DNA of 20,000 nt from the IMG/VR virus record IMGVR_UViG_3300020404_001307. One strand, 5' to 3'. The notes under the pieces were generated by a model. It ran no database searches and was not told the DNA's origin. It saw only the letters and a program-made list of their open reading frames with translations. This document shows positions 5,469 through 12,251 of this stretch, piece after piece; position 1 is the first letter of the stretch; each line of letters opens with the position of its first letter. The DNA is from an uncultured virus (IMG/VR IMGVR_UViG_3300020404_001307). Taxonomy: Duplodnaviria > Heunggongvirae > Uroviricota > Caudoviricetes > Crassvirales. Both the position numbers and the translations under genes were made by a program.

Positions 5469-6077
5469 ATGGCATTTAAAATGAAGGGTACTGGGGCTGG
5501 TCATGGCACAGGTTCTGGGCCAAGTCCAAATAAGCTAGACCCTGTTAAAAAACAGGCACTTAAAACTGGCGCTAAGTTAGTAGGTAAAAGATTACTTGGT
5601 GCTGCGTTGGGTCCTATTGGTTGGGCATGGACCGCTATGGACATTGCTAAAGCTGGTTACGATTATCACAAAAAAAATCAAGAAAAAAAGAACAAACAAC
5701 AGCCTACTAAAACTGTAGATGAAAACGTAGAAAAAAATACTAACGTAGTAGATCAGCCCTCGATAGAAAGAGGTACAACTATAGGTGCTGTAGAAGCACA
5801 AACAGCGGGGCCTTCACAAGAAGTACAAACAACTAAACCTTCGCAAGAAACAAAAACAGCGCCTACTGAAAATGTTAAAAAGAAAAGCACTGTTAGTAAA
5901 CCAAAAACTAGTACTAAAAGTTCTAGTGGTAAGCTTACTTACGCTCAAGCTAAAAAGAACGATCCTAATTTATCTAAATATATAGCTGAAAGAAAAAAAT
6001 ATAAAAAAGGATCGCCTGAATATAAAGTTGTACAAAACAAAATTAACGCAGCATACAGAGTTAAAAAAAGACACTAA
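5469..6077 (+). CDS. Basic low-complexity hypothetical protein (MAFKMK start)
   Basis: 202 aa ORF with one hydrophobic Gly-rich segment (LLGAALGPIGWAWTAM), a K/T/S/Q-rich linker and a basic C-terminus. Confidence 0.65.
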   Translation: MAFKMKGTGAGHGTGSGPSPNKLDPVKKQALKTGAKLVGKRLLGAALGPIGWAWTAMDIAKAGYDYHKKNQEKKNKQQPTKTVDENVEKNTNVVDQPSIERGTTIGAVEAQTAGPSQEVQTTKPSQETKTAPTENVKKKSTVSKPKTSTKSSSGKLTYAQAKKNDPNLSKYIAERKKYKKGSPEYKVVQNKINAAYRVKKRH

Positions 6078-7120
6078 TGAAAAAATTATTATTATTATTT
6101 CTGTTAGTTTGTACTGTAAGTACAGCACAGACAAAAGACTTCTTTAAATATTCTACTTTCTATACATCGATGTCTATGAATACGTCATTTGTTGAAAGAG
6201 AAGATTATAGAGCTGTAAATAAAGGTTATGAAGACATAACTAAAATTAATGCGTACGATTATAATTTAACGTTAGGTGTGCGCAAAATAGCAAGATTTAA
6301 TTATGAAACAAAAAGACAGACATGGTATACAGGTACTGAAAGAAACACTGCAGATAACGTCACTATTGGCAATGCTAATGGCTGGGAGTATTTGTTTAAT
6401 TATTCTTTTATACGTAGTCGTGGTGAAAAGTTTACTGAGCAAAATTTTTGGTTACGTTACCTCGGTGATTGGTTCGTTGCTAAAGCGCAGTATACAGACA
6501 ATGAAAGGGTAAACTTAAAATATTCATCGTTAGATTATAGAATAAGATTTAATAAAGGTAACTGGGATTTTACTATTGGAACAATATTTAGAGTGCACCC
6601 AGTATATGGAGTAAATCCTATAGAAGATTTTTGGGTGCCAGGCGAAAGTACATTTCAAGATTTAGCAGAAGACTTTGGTTACGTACCTCAACCTTGGAAT
6701 CAAGGTTTTTATATAGATCAAAACTGGTACGACGTTAGTGGTGGAGACTCGGTATTAGTAGCTACCTCTAATAATGAGTTCTTCAACCACTACTTCGGTG
6801 ACGCAGTCGCGAGATACAATGAACGTGAACTTGATAAATTAGGTTTACAAAAAGAATTAAGTGCCGTACTAGGAGTTGCTTATTATAAGTATACACCTAA
6901 ATTTTGGCTACACACGTGGTATAATTTTTTACCATATCACTATGGGCTAGATGATTACTCGTATAAATATGAAGACAGCATGGCAGAGTGGGACGCTGGT
7001 ATTATATTTGGAACTAAGATAACTAAAAGCTTAGGTTTATTTGTAGAAGGTATACACATGAGATATTGGGGTAAAGAAATATACGAAGTAAAATTTGGGT
7101 TTAACTATTTAATATTTTAA
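6077..7120 (+). CDS. Predicted outer-membrane beta-barrel protein with Sec signal peptide
   Basis: MKKLLLLFLLVCTVSTA|Q signal peptide; aromatic-rich amphipathic strands; terminal strand YEVKFGFNYLIF ends in Phe, as in a BAM beta-signal. Confidence 0.65.
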   Translation: MKKLLLLFLLVCTVSTAQTKDFFKYSTFYTSMSMNTSFVEREDYRAVNKGYEDITKINAYDYNLTLGVRKIARFNYETKRQTWYTGTERNTADNVTIGNANGWEYLFNYSFIRSRGEKFTEQNFWLRYLGDWFVAKAQYTDNERVNLKYSSLDYRIRFNKGNWDFTIGTIFRVHPVYGVNPIEDFWVPGESTFQDLAEDFGYVPQPWNQGFYIDQNWYDVSGGDSVLVATSNNEFFNHYFGDAVARYNERELDKLGLQKELSAVLGVAYYKYTPKFWLHTWYNFLPYHYGLDDYSYKYEDSMAEWDAGIIFGTKITKSLGLFVEGIHMRYWGKEIYEVKFGFNYLIF

Positions 7121-7123
7121 GAT

Positions 7124-7303
7124 ATGACATTTAAATTAAAAAAACTAAAAGACACTAAGCTTGGTAAGTTTTTTGGCGTAGGCCAAGGAGAAAAAAGAAA
7201 AGCTAATAGAGAGCGAAAAAGAGACACTCATAATAGACACGCTAGAAAGACAGAAGGAAGCAGACTTACACAATCGCTTAGAAGAAAATTTAATAAAAAA
7301 TAA
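7124..7303 (+). CDS. Small very basic protein (59 aa, MTFKLK start)
   Basis: Translated by hand: MTFKLKKLKDTKLGKFFGVGQGEKRKANRERKRDTHNRHARKTEGSRLTQSLRRKFNKK*; fills the gap almost exactly. Confidence 0.65.
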   Translation: MTFKLKKLKDTKLGKFFGVGQGEKRKANRERKRDTHNRHARKTEGSRLTQSLRRKFNKK

Positions 7304-7307
7304 AATT

Positions 7308-8021
7308 ATGAAGAAATATATTATAATACTATTTGCGTTTATTAGCTCGTTCGCTAGTGCGCAAGAACTGGACTTTCAACAATTATGCATTGAGTGTGCA
7401 GAGCAAAACGGTTTTTATTGCGGAGATGATCCAGCAAACTGGACACAGTATTCCCCTAACGGATGTGTGCCTAATGGTCCAGATTTGTTTTATTTAAATG
7501 ATGGTTGGTCAGATTGCGTTGACGGTGCTGATGAAGCAGAAGCCGAACCAACAACCATAGAAAGCTGTGGACCAATTGGGCCACCACCATGTGATACTGT
7601 TTATGTAACAGAGTTTGAAACTATTTATGAAACAATATATGACACTATAACTAACACAGAGTATGTATATGAAATTATAGTTGATACAGTAGAAGTAGAA
7701 GTATTTTTACCTGAATATATTTATATCACTGATACAGTAACAGTATATGAAGATATATTAGATACTTTATTTGTTGATGTTATTGAATACGTAGATGTAT
7801 TAGTATATGATACTATTGTAGAAATAGAGTATGTAGAGTTTATAGAGTATATTACAGAGTATGTAGACTGCGATACTGGGCTACCTTGTAGTTCTAATAT
7901 AGATGAGCTTATAAATAAATCTAAGCAAAATAGTGTAATATATAATATTAACGGGCAGGCAATAAAAGAGCAAGAAGGATTATATATTGAAGACGGTAAA
8001 ATAAAACTTAAAATAAAATAA
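7308..8021 (+). CDS. Secreted acidic protein: LDL-receptor class A-like domain, DT-repeat stalk, T9SS CTD-like tail
   Basis: Signal peptide ...SFASA|Q; FYC...GCVP...YLNDGWSDCVDGADE; repeated DT[VIL] units; ends IYNINGQAIKEQEGLYIEDGKIKLKIK. Confidence 0.65.
   Translation: MKKYIIILFAFISSFASAQELDFQQLCIECAEQNGFYCGDDPANWTQYSPNGCVPNGPDLFYLNDGWSDCVDGADEAEAEPTTIESCGPIGPPPCDTVYVTEFETIYETIYDTITNTEYVYEIIVDTVEVEVFLPEYIYITDTVTVYEDILDTLFVDVIEYVDVLVYDTIVEIEYVEFIEYITEYVDCDTGLPCSSNIDELINKSKQNSVIYNINGQAIKEQEGLYIEDGKIKLKIK
7593..7868 (+). repeat. Imperfect coding repeat (DTVYV/YDTIT/VDTVE/TDTVT/LDTLF/YDTIV, IEYV units)
   Basis: Residues ~96-187 of ORF 7308 consist almost entirely of D/E/T/V/I/Y, with recurrent GATAC[TA] codon blocks. 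Confidence 0.6.
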
Positions 8022-8023
8022 TT

Positions 8024-8182
8024 ATGTCAAAAGATAAAAGATACAGAGGTAAAACAACTCCTGGTTTAAAAATGTGTATGGATAATATCAAAGGTGCTAG
8101 TTACAAAAAAGAAACTGCTACAGTTGATGACAAGCCGCCACACTTAAAAAGGTATGATGTTAAAACTAACAAAGCTAGGTAA
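8024..8182 (+). CDS. Small basic hypothetical protein (52 aa)
   Basis: Translated by hand: MSKDKRYRGKTTPGLKMCMDNIKGASYKKETATVDDKPPHLKRYDVKTNKAR*. TAATTATG junction upstream and TAATG overlap downstream. Confidence 0.6.
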   Translation: MSKDKRYRGKTTPGLKMCMDNIKGASYKKETATVDDKPPHLKRYDVKTNKAR

Positions 8183-8526
8183 TGTCAAAAGAACTTTCAG
8201 AAGAAAGCAAGTTTCAAATAAGTGTTAAAACATTAATCAGTATAGTAGTAGCTGTTGCCACTATTATATCTGCTTATTTTGGTTTAATGGCTAGTATTAA
8301 TTCTAAGTTTGCAGAACTAGAAGGTAAAGTAGAAAAAGCTTTAGAGTTACCTAAACCAGGAACTGGCACTTATACAATAGACATGGGTGATCCAGCGGCT
8401 AGCAATACATGGCCGCCAACTCGTATGGAGTTTAATATGAAAGATCAAATGGCTCGTAATAAAATTGATGCAGTAATAAAGGAAGTAGATGAAATGAAAG
8501 ACGAAATAAAACTTTTAAGAAAATGA
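8182..8526 (+). CDS. Single-TM membrane protein with C-terminal coiled coils (holin/spanin-like topology possible)
   Basis: TM segment LISIVVAVATIISAYFGLMA, then two heptad-like stretches separated by a Pro/Gly linker; ATGA overlap with the next gene. Confidence 0.6.
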   Translation: MSKELSEESKFQISVKTLISIVVAVATIISAYFGLMASINSKFAELEGKVEKALELPKPGTGTYTIDMGDPAASNTWPPTRMEFNMKDQMARNKIDAVIKEVDEMKDEIKLLRK

Positions 8527-8918
8527 CATTAGATATATCTAACTTTATTTATGTATTCGTAATGCTGTTTATGTTTTGCATCGGTACATGTTCTGCTCAA
8601 GAGTTTGCTGACAATAGTAATTTTAAAAACAAAATAGCAAAAGATGTTGTTGCTGTAGAATTTTGGGCTGACTGGAACAAAATGAATCAGTTTAATGAAT
8701 TAAATAAATTAAAAGGATGTAATGTATATCGCGTGGATATTATGTCATCTATGGACATACAAACAGATTATAATATTACAGCTGTACCAACAGTTATTAT
8801 ATTTGATAATGGTGTTGAGAAAGCTCGCTTCAATCCTAACGTAATGTTTAAATTAGAAGCAGATAAAAAAACAGTACAACACGTTGTTGATACTATAACA
8901 CTAAATAAATTTCAATAA
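8523..8918 (+). CDS. Exported thioredoxin-fold protein lacking the CxxC active site
   Basis: VVAVEFWADWN in place of VVDFWAxWCxxC; YNITAVPTVIIFDNG cis-Pro region; hydrophobic leader ending CSA|Q. Confidence 0.75.
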   Translation: MTLDISNFIYVFVMLFMFCIGTCSAQEFADNSNFKNKIAKDVVAVEFWADWNKMNQFNELNKLKGCNVYRVDIMSSMDIQTDYNITAVPTVIIFDNGVEKARFNPNVMFKLEADKKTVQHVVDTITLNKFQ

Positions 8919-8920
8919 TT

Positions 8921-9268
8921 ATGGCGTTTAAATTAAAACATACCGGTAGAGCATTTCCTTTTAAAACACATAAAATGTATAAAGGAAATAAGACTGTTGT
9001 AGCTAATACTAAAAAAGAACACGAAGATCTTTCTGACAAAGGTTATGGCCACACGCCTCCACCTACTAAGCTAACAGACTTAAACAATGATGGTGAGGTA
9101 ACTAAAGCAGATCACCTTATAAAGTTAGGTAAGATAAACACAGATGGTAGTAAGACTTCTACTTATAAAAAAACTTTAAAGCCCTGTCAAAAGGCTGCGG
9201 CTAAAAAAAAGTTTGATGTATATCCTAGTGCATATGCTAACATGTGGGCTGCTAATCATAAATGTTAA
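8921..9268 (+). CDS. Small basic modular protein (MAFKLK start; DxNxDG loop; YPSAYA motif)
   Basis: 115 aa ORF containing DLNNDGEVTKAD and KKKFDVYPSAYAN; the latter recalls DUF5872-like phage proteins (from memory, unverified). Confidence 0.65.
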   Translation: MAFKLKHTGRAFPFKTHKMYKGNKTVVANTKKEHEDLSDKGYGHTPPPTKLTDLNNDGEVTKADHLIKLGKINTDGSKTSTYKKTLKPCQKAAAKKKFDVYPSAYANMWAANHKC

Positions 9269-9271
9269 GTA

Positions 9272-9586
9272 GTGCCTTACAAACAAAAAAGAAATCCAAT
9301 ACCTTTGACTGGATGCGGTAGACGTAGACCAGAAGAAATGACTAACCCTTTTAGAAAGGCTACTAGAAAGGTTTGTTTGCCTTACAATAAGATTAAAAGT
9401 ATGAGTAATGATGAAAAGAAAAAGGTAATTAACGCTAAAAAATCTGCAGCTAATAAAGGTAAGCAAGTTAGAGATAGTAAAAGTTGGATTAGAGATGGTA
9501 GTACTAGAAGTGATGGTTTAAAAGACTGGGTTAATCAAGACTGGAGACAAGTTGCTAATCCAGGTAAAAAATGCGGAGAAAAATGA
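9272..9586 (+). CDS. Small basic hypothetical protein (GTG start)
   Basis: 104 aa, K/R-rich, GLKDWVNQDW motif; tightly packed between neighbours. Confidence 0.65.
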   Translation: MPYKQKRNPIPLTGCGRRRPEEMTNPFRKATRKVCLPYNKIKSMSNDEKKKVINAKKSAANKGKQVRDSKSWIRDGSTRSDGLKDWVNQDWRQVANPGKKCGEK

Positions 9587-9882
9587 GTTACGATAATAGA
9601 AATGTAGACCCTTTAAAAATAACAGAGAAAGCTTATGAAAGACAAAATCGTAAGATGAGGTCTAAGCATAAGTCTGAAACCGGTAGAACTTTAGGTAATA
9701 GACATTTAACTGGAACTAGCCCGCGTAGAGTTAACTTTGCTTGTAGGTTTGCTGGTATGAAAGGTTCTATGAAAGATAAAAACGGTGAACCAACTAGATA
9801 TGCTATGGCTTTAAAAAAGTGGGGATTTGGAAGTAGAGAAGCTGCTAGAAATTTTTGTAATAAAAACAAAAGTAAAAAATAA
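9583..9882 (+). CDS. Small basic protein, DUF6321-like (RRVNFACRFAGMKGSMKDKNGEPTRYAMALKKWG)
   Basis: ORF track start is 9571; ATG at 9583 gives an ATGA overlap and is preferred. Family recognised from memory only. Confidence 0.6.
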   Translation: MSYDNRNVDPLKITEKAYERQNRKMRSKHKSETGRTLGNRHLTGTSPRRVNFACRFAGMKGSMKDKNGEPTRYAMALKKWGFGSREAARNFCNKNKSKK

Positions 9883-10157
9883 TGGCTATATACGGTTCGT
9901 TCTCATCACCGCAAAAGAAAACAATGGGCGAGTTTAAACACTCAGACGCACCTGATGCTAAAGGTAAGTTTAAAACGTTATCAGCTTCAGCGTTAGCCTC
10001 GTGGCTTATTAAAACTAGAAAAGGAAACTTGTCTAAAATAATAAGTAGTTTAAACCAACAGTACGTTTTTAACAGAGGTAAAAATCCTAGCTATGCTCGT
10101 AAAATGAAAACAGTTATGAACATAGTTAGAAAACGTTTAGGTAAAAAAGATAAATAA
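9882..10157 (+). CDS. Small basic hypothetical protein
   Basis: 91 aa ORF, TAATG-coupled, last gene before the terminator. Confidence 0.65.
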   Translation: MAIYGSFSSPQKKTMGEFKHSDAPDAKGKFKTLSASALASWLIKTRKGNLSKIISSLNQQYVFNRGKNPSYARKMKTVMNIVRKRLGKKDK

Positions 10158-10188
10158 AAAAAAAGGGGCCGAAGCCCCTTTTTATTTT
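10157..10188. terminator. Bidirectional rho-independent terminator
   Basis: A-run, GGGGC-CGAA-GCCCC hairpin (10165-10178), then TTTTTATTTT, between convergent stop codons at 10157 and 10187. Confidence 0.9.
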
Positions 10189-10366
10189 AGCTATTCTTTA
10201 TAGCTTGAATTGTTGTTCTCACATTTTGAGCAGCTTCTTTAATTGTCTGCATACTCTTTCTAGCCCTAGTTCCGGCTGATTTATTTCCACCCATAAACTT
10301 TTCTATTTCTTCGTGAGCACTGTGCATTTCATCTTGCATGGCATCTAGTAATTCATTTAAATCCAT
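10187..10366 (-). CDS. Histone H1-like (Hc1 family) small protein
   Basis: Translated by hand: MDLNELLDAMQDEMHSAHEEIEKFMGGNKSAGTRARKSMQTIKEAAQNVRTTIQAIKNS*. KFxxGNKSAGTRARK is the Hc1-family signature. Confidence 0.8.
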   Translation of the reverse strand: MDLNELLDAMQDEMHSAHEEIEKFMGGNKSAGTRARKSMQTIKEAAQNVRTTIQAIKNS

Positions 10367-10385: not shown

Positions 10386-12251
10386 TTAAACAACTTCACA
10401 GTTACCACCAGCGCAAGCAAGCTCACCTGATAGATCTGTGTTATCATCTGTCTCTGTTACTTTCGTTAAATCGACATCAGATAATACTTTAGACATTTTA
10501 TTGTATTCAGCTTCGTCAATGTCTTCAAACGGAGCTTGTGTATATGTACCACCGTCGTATGGTAATACTGATAACCCATTGTAATAATCTCTATTACTCC
10601 ACATCCACTCACCTGCTTTTTTCCACTCATCTTCTTTCAAAGATATTGTAGCTGATACATTGTGAGTATTACTACCACGTCTGTGACCAGGCTTAATCCA
10701 CTCTTGAGCTACACGTTTAACTCTTTCAAGAGTATCAAACGGTGATTCAGTTCTAAGTATTGATTTAGCTGGAGCTTTTTGTGGTACAGATATTACCGCT
10801 GTATCGTGCGGTCTGAAGTATTCATCTTCAATTAATTCTGGATGTGACTTAGATAAATATTTATATATAGCCTCGTTTTTTCCTACGCGCATCCTACGTA
10901 CATAATAATCATTATGCCACGCATGAATACCCGAAGACGTTCCGAGGACCAGAGATGTCGTCCCTGCAGGTTTTACGGTTGTACATCTGGCTGAAGATTT
11001 AATCCCTAAGATCTTTGCTGCTCTTGCATTTTCTTTTGTTACGATATTTGCAGCTTCCTTCATATCCATTTGGAGCACAGCGGCACTCCCTATCCCTGTC
11101 ATTGACACACCTATAAGAGCGTCTTTCTCTGTTGTCTCTTTCCATATTTCTCTAAGATAATGGAAGTCGGTATATGCGGCTTGCAATGTTCCAATAAACG
11201 CTGCTGCCTTGACTCTGTTATTAAAATCAGCTTGATCTTCTATATCAGAGACGTTTACTTCGCATAGATTACAGAACTGAAAAGGCCTTAGTGCTATCTC
11301 ACAACAAGGATTAGTTCCCCAGTCCTTATCATTGTTAAGATATATACCAGGCTCACCAGCTCCTGATAACTCAACCCTTTTCCATAAGTCCATAAAGAAC
11401 TCTTTAGTTACTTTATGCCTCATTAAAACAGCTGAGTTATTAGCTCTACCTCTTTGTGGGTTAGTTTCCCACCAATGTCCTGATTTACAACCTATCATTT
11501 CGTTATCGCTAGCAGTAAACAAACTAATTAAAGCAGCTCGTCTAATACCACCAGCTAATACAGCATCAGCTATATGACATATGATATCGTGTACTTCAAG
11601 AGAAGTTAAAGCGTCACCGTCTTCTTTTGATTGAAGTATACCTTCAACCTTGATTAAACATTCTTTTAATGGCTGTGGGCCAGGTGCTTTACCACCTGAT
11701 GTCACTAGCCTAGCACCTTTTGGTCTGATACAAGTATAATCAAAGTTTATCTTAGAAGCCTTCTTGCCGCCAAGGTAAGACTTAATTAATACTTTAACAG
11801 CATCAGACCAACCCTCAATTGAATCACCTATAACAAAACGCTTAGATCTTTTCATATAAGGTTTTGTTATTACAGGTAAGTCTTTAATGTGGTGCTGTTG
11901 AACCGAATAACCGACTCCACATCCTGAAAGTAATAGAAACATTATCTCGTTAAAAGCTTCGATATCATCTACAGGTAAGTATGAACAGTTATATAACCTA
12001 TTAGGACTTACTTGTATTGGTTTACCAGCAAATTGTAAACTACGCATTGATGGTAAAATCTTTTTATCAAATACATAAGTATACGCATCTAATATATCGC
12101 TTTTTAATTGTGGGTAATTCTTGATATGCATCTCCAAATTTCTAGTAACTAGCTCGTCCCAAGTTTCTCTACGATTTAACTCGGGCATATATCTAGCGTA
12201 CTTCATATGAACAGTAATATCAGAAAGTATGTTTCTATTAGTGTCTTTCAT
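10386..12251 (-). CDS. nrdJ: Class II (adenosylcobalamin-dependent) ribonucleotide reductase
   Basis: RRETWDE, LPSMRSLQ, YNCS, TNPCCEI, CNLCEVN, TTVKPAGTTSL and C-terminal CAGGNC; 621 aa; no adjacent beta-subunit gene. Confidence 0.88.
   Translation of the reverse strand: MKDTNRNILSDITVHMKYARYMPELNRRETWDELVTRNLEMHIKNYPQLKSDILDAYTYVFDKKILPSMRSLQFAGKPIQVSPNRLYNCSYLPVDDIEAFNEIMFLLLSGCGVGYSVQQHHIKDLPVITKPYMKRSKRFVIGDSIEGWSDAVKVLIKSYLGGKKASKINFDYTCIRPKGARLVTSGGKAPGPQPLKECLIKVEGILQSKEDGDALTSLEVHDIICHIADAVLAGGIRRAALISLFTASDNEMIGCKSGHWWETNPQRGRANNSAVLMRHKVTKEFFMDLWKRVELSGAGEPGIYLNNDKDWGTNPCCEIALRPFQFCNLCEVNVSDIEDQADFNNRVKAAAFIGTLQAAYTDFHYLREIWKETTEKDALIGVSMTGIGSAAVLQMDMKEAANIVTKENARAAKILGIKSSARCTTVKPAGTTSLVLGTSSGIHAWHNDYYVRRMRVGKNEAIYKYLSKSHPELIEDEYFRPHDTAVISVPQKAPAKSILRTESPFDTLERVKRVAQEWIKPGHRRGSNTHNVSATISLKEDEWKKAGEWMWSNRDYYNGLSVLPYDGGTYTQAPFEDIDEAEYNKMSKVLSDVDLTKVTETDDNTDLSGELACAGGNCEVV

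Follow-up and report, generated by a model that had tools for sequence, protein, structure and literature searches.

It is an open question how phages without spanins, those of Bacteroidota among them, get through the outer membrane (PMC6139136), and a group of genes in an uncultured virus of the Crassvirales (IMG/VR record IMGVR_UViG_3300020404_001307) offers a concrete three-gene candidate with a predicted, mutable contact segment. The window, by which we mean the whole stretch of 20,000 nucleotides analyzed here, had been read from its letters alone (the sequence-only reading) as carrying at 6077..8918 a cell-envelope cassette of four genes, encoding an outer-membrane β-barrel, a secreted protein with an LDLa-like head and a tail resembling those of type IX secretion system (T9SS) cargos, a membrane anchor, and an exported, redox-dead thioredoxin. 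We use "cassette" for the barrel, the LDLa protein, the inner-membrane protein (TM) and the thioredoxin (TRX), and "trio" for the barrel, TM and TRX. Our analysis supports a conserved trans-envelope module of Bacteroidota phages, and the gene co-occurrence that such a module entails was found for the trio. That the trio acts as a late, lysis-linked bridge from the inner to the outer membrane, replacing the spanin with a new outer anchor without being a canonical spanin, is in our judgment an evenly balanced proposition, whose steps beyond localization and linkage we infer. The module is undescribed in the literature that we searched.

Barrel, TM and TRX as a unit beside endolysins

Open reading frames (ORFs) and their junctions confirmed that the four cassette genes, the signal-peptide cleavage sites before glutamine (STA/Q, ASA/Q and CSA/Q, the slash marking the cut) and the ATGA overlap of the TM and TRX genes (8523-8526) are all present. 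The proposed gene list was incomplete, since two small basic ORFs (Table 1) lie inside the cassette as variable passengers. A four-part system was not supported as an obligate one: the barrel, TM and TRX travel together, and the LDLa protein was found in only 3 of 18 barrel clusters at 70% identity (43 of 71 at 95%), being otherwise swapped or absent.

Our set of 81 loci (126 loci minus near-duplicates) was chosen for carrying all three trio genes and is therefore no test of co-occurrence. After removal of barrel clusters whose flanks were too short (4 of 22 at 70% identity and 27 of 98 at 95%), the trio was complete in all 18 that were left at the lower threshold and in 67 of 71 at the higher. 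A reverse search from a distant TM protein, done to remove the bias of barrel-based sampling, left 62 loci once 18 of 80 with too short a flank had been set aside; 61 of these have TRX and 58 have the barrel. Three of the four missing barrels lie elsewhere on the contig, giving a total of 61/62, and the fourth case is a 61%-complete fragment. The spacing between the TM and TRX genes is -32 to +9 nt in 102 of 105 distinct proteins, and gene orders vary (B-L-M-T, B-M-T and M-T-B, where B is the barrel, L the LDLa protein, M TM and T TRX). The trio is carried by phages with unrelated head and tail modules, on contigs of up to 158-173 kb.

The lysin candidate that had been noted next to the cassette matches the endolysin family phrog_33083, and its homologs occur in Bacteroides and crAss phage records (34-48% identity). 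An endolysin-family gene lies within 1.5 kb of the trio in 68 of the 81 loci, and the type of endolysin swaps while the trio stays: an M15 peptidase, a DUF5675 protein (which we take to be an endolysin) and the family of the window, all three unrelated to one another, and, elsewhere, an amidase. The real unit is the barrel, TM and TRX, inherited together beside endolysins in many uncultured marine phages of Flavobacteria. At least 589 IMG/VR stretches encode a relative of the barrel, and 470 encode a relative of one TM protein; common as it is in IMG/VR, the trio was matched by none of 50,697 GenBank phage records.

Mirror-distance correlations (0.48 for barrel-TRX, 0.60 for TM-TRX and 0.26 for barrel-TM) were set aside because kinship confounds them. 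Three metatranscriptome runs of one study yielded nothing beyond contigs, which neither demonstrate transcription nor allow the genes to be ranked. In other lineages, small membrane proteins with two helices (families F22 and F18; e.g., L013:10391-10603), absent from the window, often lie inside the cassette and are possible holins. At two loci (L088:8696-9103 and L089:8764-9183), a second small exported protein of 135-139 aa with a β-signal-like end is encoded downstream of the trio.

Predicted structure and placement of the three proteins

The outer-membrane barrel expected from the sequence was borne out by an AlphaFold2 (AF2) model with 12 long strands (predicted local distance difference test score, pLDDT, 75.7). 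The top Foldseek matches are all outer-membrane barrels (identity, ≤11%), and the best VIA match is Tsx (Z 13.5; root mean square deviation, 3.9; 188 aligned), which ties with KdgM, EstA and NanC at Z 13.1-13.5, the four belonging to unrelated families, with identity of ≤14%. Of 123 homologs, 118 end in F, Y or L. With its signal peptide, even strand number and aromatic C-terminal strand, the modeled protein has the features of a substrate of the β-barrel assembly machinery (BAM) and is, by computation, a 12-stranded outer-membrane protein. Conservation of the +1 glutamine is at least 90% among barrels (81 sequences), LDLa proteins (49) and TRX proteins (81), in agreement with the Q-type signal sites that had been proposed. 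No Pfam family matched the window barrel or was common to more than 2 of the 81 members, no PDB sequence matched it, and its nearest Atlas clusters are viral and unnamed; it thus appears to belong to no listed family.

The phage barrel shares its fold and strand number with Tsx, KdgM, NanC and autotransporter β-domains (Z 12-13.5; identity, ≤14%) but is set apart from them by a long, conserved segment on the periplasmic side and by a helical insertion of 80 residues on the outside. With strands counted back from a periplasmic C terminus, residues ~67-101 (71-101) would face the periplasm and the helical insertion at 176-256 would be extracellular. The periplasmic segment has a pLDDT of <50 at 74-98, yet its conservation is 0.71, a combination that in this model suggests a partner-binding site; the outer insertion is conserved at 0.62, compared with 0.65-0.67 in the strands.

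The single membrane helix ascribed to the TM protein was borne out. Its C-terminal domain, 55-84 aa long in 81 homologs, comprises two helical stretches flanking a Pro-rich hinge, a layout like that of an i-spanin; flanking charges are neutral on both sides of the helix, and an N-in/C-out orientation and a coiled coil are presumed. TRX matches PF00085 at 2e-7, above the cut-off, and PDB thioredoxins at down to 2e-11, and the window protein has WADWN where WCGPC would be expected. As had been claimed from the single sequence, the CxxC motif is missing: it occurs in 0 of 112 homologs, found with a profile from whose training CxxC-bearing homologs were kept out, and the cis-Pro motif occurs in 110 of 112. 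By computation, TRX is a true thioredoxin fold, exported and redox-dead.

A lipobox-like cysteine precedes the Q-rule site in 9 of 123 barrels (L024, L028, L030, L032, L041, L088, L142, L152 and L161) and is present in TRX at only 8 of 81 loci, counts from scans that were run without a control or missed lambda Rz1; these proteins may be lipidated variants. The window TRX has no lipobox, its conserved feature being Q26.

A proposed membrane bridge at lysis and its rivals

As two-component spanins are described in the available portions of PMC6139136 (lambda Rz/Rz1 and T7 gp18.5/18.7), TM resembles the i-spanin in having an N-terminal membrane helix followed by a helical domain, which would lie in the periplasm. 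The TM gene overlaps that of an exported partner (TRX) and lies near an endolysin gene, as in Rz/Rz1-type pairs. On the other hand, TRX is a thioredoxin fold cleaved by signal peptidase I and not an outer-membrane lipoprotein, and the outer anchor would in our proposal be supplied by a third protein, the integral barrel of 12 strands; none of these proteins matches spanins at the family level. Unimolecular spanins (T1 gp11) would span the periplasm too, but the N-terminal lipobox and C-terminal transmembrane domain of gp11 are absent here. According to the same portions of PMC6139136, 91 of 677 genomes lack spanins, and an outer-membrane protein serving as an o-spanin is raised as speculation only (Kongari et al.); the accessible text of PMC12596118 reports only unimolecular spanins in Bacteroidetes phages, and that of PMC10136315 and PMC8776804 mentions spanins without such a module. 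The phiKT disruptin gp28 disrupts the outer membrane for a phage that lacks spanins, the role proposed for the trio, but, as far as the available part of bioRxiv 10.1101/515445 describes it, it is a 56-aa cationic peptide.

In the window and four near-complete trio genomes (G005, G006, G010 and G011), a scan that recovered its controls lambda Rz1, Bor and T7 gp18.7 gave no plausible o-spanin candidate, the remaining matches being a 44-aa lipoprotein of the early region, the N terminus of one barrel and some unconvincing ORFs, most of which lie on the other strand. No ORF with the unimolecular layout of an N-terminal lipobox and a C-terminal transmembrane domain was found in the same sequences, and in G005, G006 and G011 the N-terminally hydrophobic ORFs are almost all cassette genes.

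The bridge can be pictured as follows: (i) TM would be anchored in the inner membrane, its helical domain reaching into the periplasm; (ii) TRX would be the adaptor between TM and the barrel, of which it would bind the periplasmic segment 67-101; (iii) peptidoglycan would keep the bridge extended; and (iv) once holin and endolysin have removed the wall, the hinge would permit the bridge to collapse, drawing the membranes together until the outer membrane ruptures. The LDLa protein would be an optional surface cargo of the same operon, exported by the host T9SS, and may dock on the outer insertion of the barrel. More tentatively, and with somewhat less than even confidence, we propose a new class of phage lysis machine, a spanin in three parts that would have a phage-made, BAM-inserted barrel of 12 strands for its outer anchor and a catalytically dead thioredoxin for its adaptor. 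The outer domain of the barrel would couple lysis to phage surface proteins exported by the T9SS, and one-piece proteins of other flavobacterial phages, joining a membrane helix to β-strands, would be the compact form. Such one-piece proteins are encoded by the cultured capsid relatives elemoF and Panino, in which no barrel was found. Their unannotated products, elemoF gp32 (L196:6392-6937) and Panino CDS0090 (L197:42701-43303), begin with a helix, continue as a D-T-rich stalk and end in amphipathic β-strands, and both genes lie upstream of the terminase gene, in elemoF three genes after the endolysin gene. Like the trio, they join a membrane helix to outer-membrane-type β-strands, but they do so in single chains, without similarity to the trio loci (no tblastn match in trio DNA); they would span the periplasm, may be a one-piece version of the same bridge and are candidate inverted spanins. 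The distribution is complementary in this comparison, the four trio genomes having no such protein, and this speaks for the bridge.

The contact proposed for the barrel gains from a lone chromosomal copy. A hidden Markov model (HMM) search of 401 Flavobacteriales genomes found one intact chromosomal barrel (L176:9379-10593, in the 1.9-Mb genome G070), among prs, rplY and pth-like housekeeping genes. The notion that the barrel occurs in phages only was rejected by this copy, in 1 of 401 genomes. The orphan genome, which may be incomplete, has no TM match and no close TRX match, and the barrel was not found in any of 120 related genomes. Of the 10 conserved positions in segment 67-101 the orphan keeps 3, compared with 45 of the 52 in the rest of the protein (Fisher P = 0.0006), and none of the 81 trio barrels keeps fewer than 9 of the 10. 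This loss of 7 of 10 residues in a barrel without partners points to the segment as a candidate contact with TRX or TM. The orphan also shows that the barrel can be kept alone. A broken second copy lies in the same genome (L177 near 10700-10940), inside an array of T9SS-cargo-like genes. A GTDB pattern scan gave a 21-residue chance match only; it missed both genomes later found by HMM and is insensitive.

Some of the results speak against the bridge: (i) 3 of 15 other divergent barrels, of unplaced context, keep only 7 of the 10 positions, and the orphan is a single lineage scored on positions that were defined on the same 81 rows; (ii) window genes have no similarity to spanin families, and a single one of the 81 TM proteins matches an Rz-like PHROG (E = 0.005); (iii) the recognizable holin is ~37 kb away in this lineage, so that adjacency to endolysins may reflect the end of the late operon only; (iv) T9SS-type cargo recurs beside the trio, whereas a pure spanin would need none, and the conservation of the outer insertion would imply a function on the outside; (v) the elemoF and Panino proteins are not proven spanins, and the comparison is one of two genomes with four; and (vi) according to the available portions of PMC6139136, there may be marine phages that can do without an outer-membrane disruptor. 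Among the functions listed in the sequence-only reading, outer-membrane disruption at lysis is the best supported, with surface remodeling and exclusion keeping a place as possibilities.

The linkage to lysis, the conserved outer insertion and the small two-helix proteins often found in the cassette would also be accounted for by a sensor of lysis timing or superinfection, in which the outer insertion, with or without cargo, detects a phage or a ligand and TRX passes the signal on to TM or a holin, delaying lysis as in T4 lysis inhibition. The T4 protein RI is a cleaved periplasmic antiholin, as stated in the accessible text of PMC8385771. We consider such a sensor unlikely at a level that still deserves discussion: it leaves these genomes without another membrane-bridging candidate, and none of the proteins matches any known lysis-inhibition protein.

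Of similar, low probability is a platform for surface remodeling or exclusion, in which the barrel anchors or displays T9SS cargo and masks receptors while TM and TRX tether it; its role would presumably be PorV- or SprF-like. At least three unrelated T9SS-type cargos occupy the fourth slot, one of them a 994-aa protein (L086:4015-6999) that matches Pfam Por_Secre_tail at 3e-13, and the LDLa gene lies directly or nearly directly after the barrel gene in its lineage. Across the 81 loci, however, the slot holds an LDLa protein in 51, another protein with a short C-terminal domain (CTD) in 10 and nothing detected in 20, and TM and TRX stay in these last 20. PorV, moreover, has 14 strands in the account available from PMC11969387, against 12 in the barrel, and a position at the end of the late operon would fit exclusion poorly. 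Both the sensor and the platform could coexist with the bridge.

Far less probable is a channel or outer-membrane enzyme, for nutrient uptake or for lipid A or phospholipid hydrolysis, gated by TRX and TM. The fold neighbors include the substrate channels Tsx, KdgM and NanC and the enzymes LpxR (Z 10.6) and OMPLA (Z 10.1), many of the conserved Arg, His and Glu residues lie within strands, and one host chromosome keeps an intact lone copy; against this, identity to all fold neighbors is ≤14%, no invariant catalytic set exists across distant homologs (His174 and His288 vary), and the OMPLA-type HxSNG motif was not seen in the barrel alignment. Ordinary virion proteins or a chance cluster, which the location within the late structural operon would allow, are very improbable given the conserved signal peptides and β-signal and the recurrence of the trio across phages with unrelated head and tail modules.

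Surface cargo and neighboring genes

The LDLa protein occupies a swappable, optional fourth slot and is not part of the core. It consists of an LDLa-like calcium-cage head, a variable stalk rich in D-T-x and a short T9SS-like C-terminal tail; in the AF2 model, the Cys-rich head is folded (pLDDT, ~80), the stalk falls below 50 and the tail forms a small β element. Its assignment as LDLa held for the calcium cage (D..DC.D..DE in 74 of 80 homologs) and is qualified elsewhere: PF00057 matched weakly in 30 of 49 members, and the fourth cysteine is missing, the six-cysteine pattern being broken by an invariant N64 in place of the Cys of C-D-G, as in glucosidase II beta. Each of the 22 PDB rows is a module of the LDL-receptor-family or glucosidase II beta type (E 0.07-6.5); fold searches with the LDLa model gave nothing significant (best E 2.5, Z 2.2), and Atlas gave no named match. 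The T9SS-like tail is supported by its motifs, with short-CTD motif B in 77 and B plus D in 73 of 80 homologs and terminal Lys residues (motif E), and not by profiles, since no Por_Secre_tail or NCBIfam CTD profile matched in 49 members; a short-CTD profile did not match host cargos significantly. The window protein has six D(S/T)x sites, and the density of such sites is 2.7 per 100 aa against a background of 0.32 (eightfold). With a short-CTD cargo of Prevotella intermedia, as described in the available text of PMC11969387, it shares the signal peptide, motif B (Y..G), motif D (GxY-I), the basic terminal motif E and D(S/T)x O-glycosylation sites, but it is phage encoded, and the gap from its presumed cleavage motif to motif B is ~13 residues versus 6-11.

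Cargos of 690-1353 aa with a long CTD accompany 18 of 80 TM loci, two further regular-expression matches having been dropped as barrels. Large phages (L086; L199-L278) carry such canonical T9SS cargo near the trio. Whatever the role of the trio, phages that repeatedly encode cargo for the host T9SS would represent a little-described way of remodeling infected cells.

Table 1. Features of the window, with positions counted from its first letter
Feature	Position	Strand	Remarks
Trp/Cys-rich protein, 59 aa	2217-2396		conserved in 39/80 loci
Putative endolysin, 202 aa	4858..5466	+	phrog_33083 endolysin, E 2.9e-15
Barrel (core 1), 347 aa	6077..7120	+	predicted signal peptidase I site STA/Q18; C-terminal β-signal
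Basic Lys/Arg-rich ORF, 59 aa	7124..7303	+	variable passenger outside the module; 3/80 loci
LDLa protein (accessory), 237 aa	7308..8021	+	predicted site ASA/Q19; acidic, exported
Basic ORF, 52 aa	8024..8182	+	variable passenger; 3/80 loci (tblastn); cluster of 8 loci
TM (core 2), 114 aa	8182..8526	+	N-terminal membrane helix and ~75-aa C-terminal domain
TRX (core 3), 131 aa	8523..8918	+	predicted site CSA/Q26; conserved cis-Pro; C-terminal KF[QNE]
Terminator-like bidirectional hairpin	10160..10183	.	marks the end of the late operon
Hc1, histone H1-like gene	10187-10366	minus	PF07432, 1.5e-17; right after ribonucleotide reductase

The stretch is recognizable as phage DNA by its minus-strand replication genes and plus-strand late operon, and GC skew switches strand near 10 kb. 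The IMG/VR contig L001, a 100% match to 19 of 24 tested window proteins, encodes a terminase, a portal and a capsid-type protein. The PF03237 profile did not pick up the terminase, and viral scans with P0245 and P0265 gave no matches. The nearest cultured capsid relatives are Elemovirus, Maribacter phage Panino and Cellulophaga phages. The available text of PMC5837995 links the Q-rule (+1 Gln) to a Bacteroidota host, and because of these capsid relatives and the Q-rule, the host is probably a member of Bacteroidota. A distant trio copy lies on a phage contig within a 2.0-Mb genome from the order of a Flavobacterium.

Other basic ORFs occupy the equivalent gaps in relatives of the window. A role of the basic ORFs as disruptins is disfavored, as they are variable, not tied to the trio and found away from the cassette too. 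Lys-rich, hypervariable small ORFs, many starting with MAFK, are scattered in the late operon (7124-7303, 8024-8182, 5469-6077 and 8921-10157 in the window) and are possibly DNA-condensing virion proteins. The Trp/Cys-rich 59-aa protein is encoded directly 3' of TM-TRX in the rearranged loci L031, L048 and L065 and is a possible further lysis component. The Hc1 gene was found in 24 of 80 loci, and GroEL/GroES-like genes (L171:3589-5401; labeled by eye and from the elemoF annotation) lie upstream of the terminase gene in the phage group of the window.

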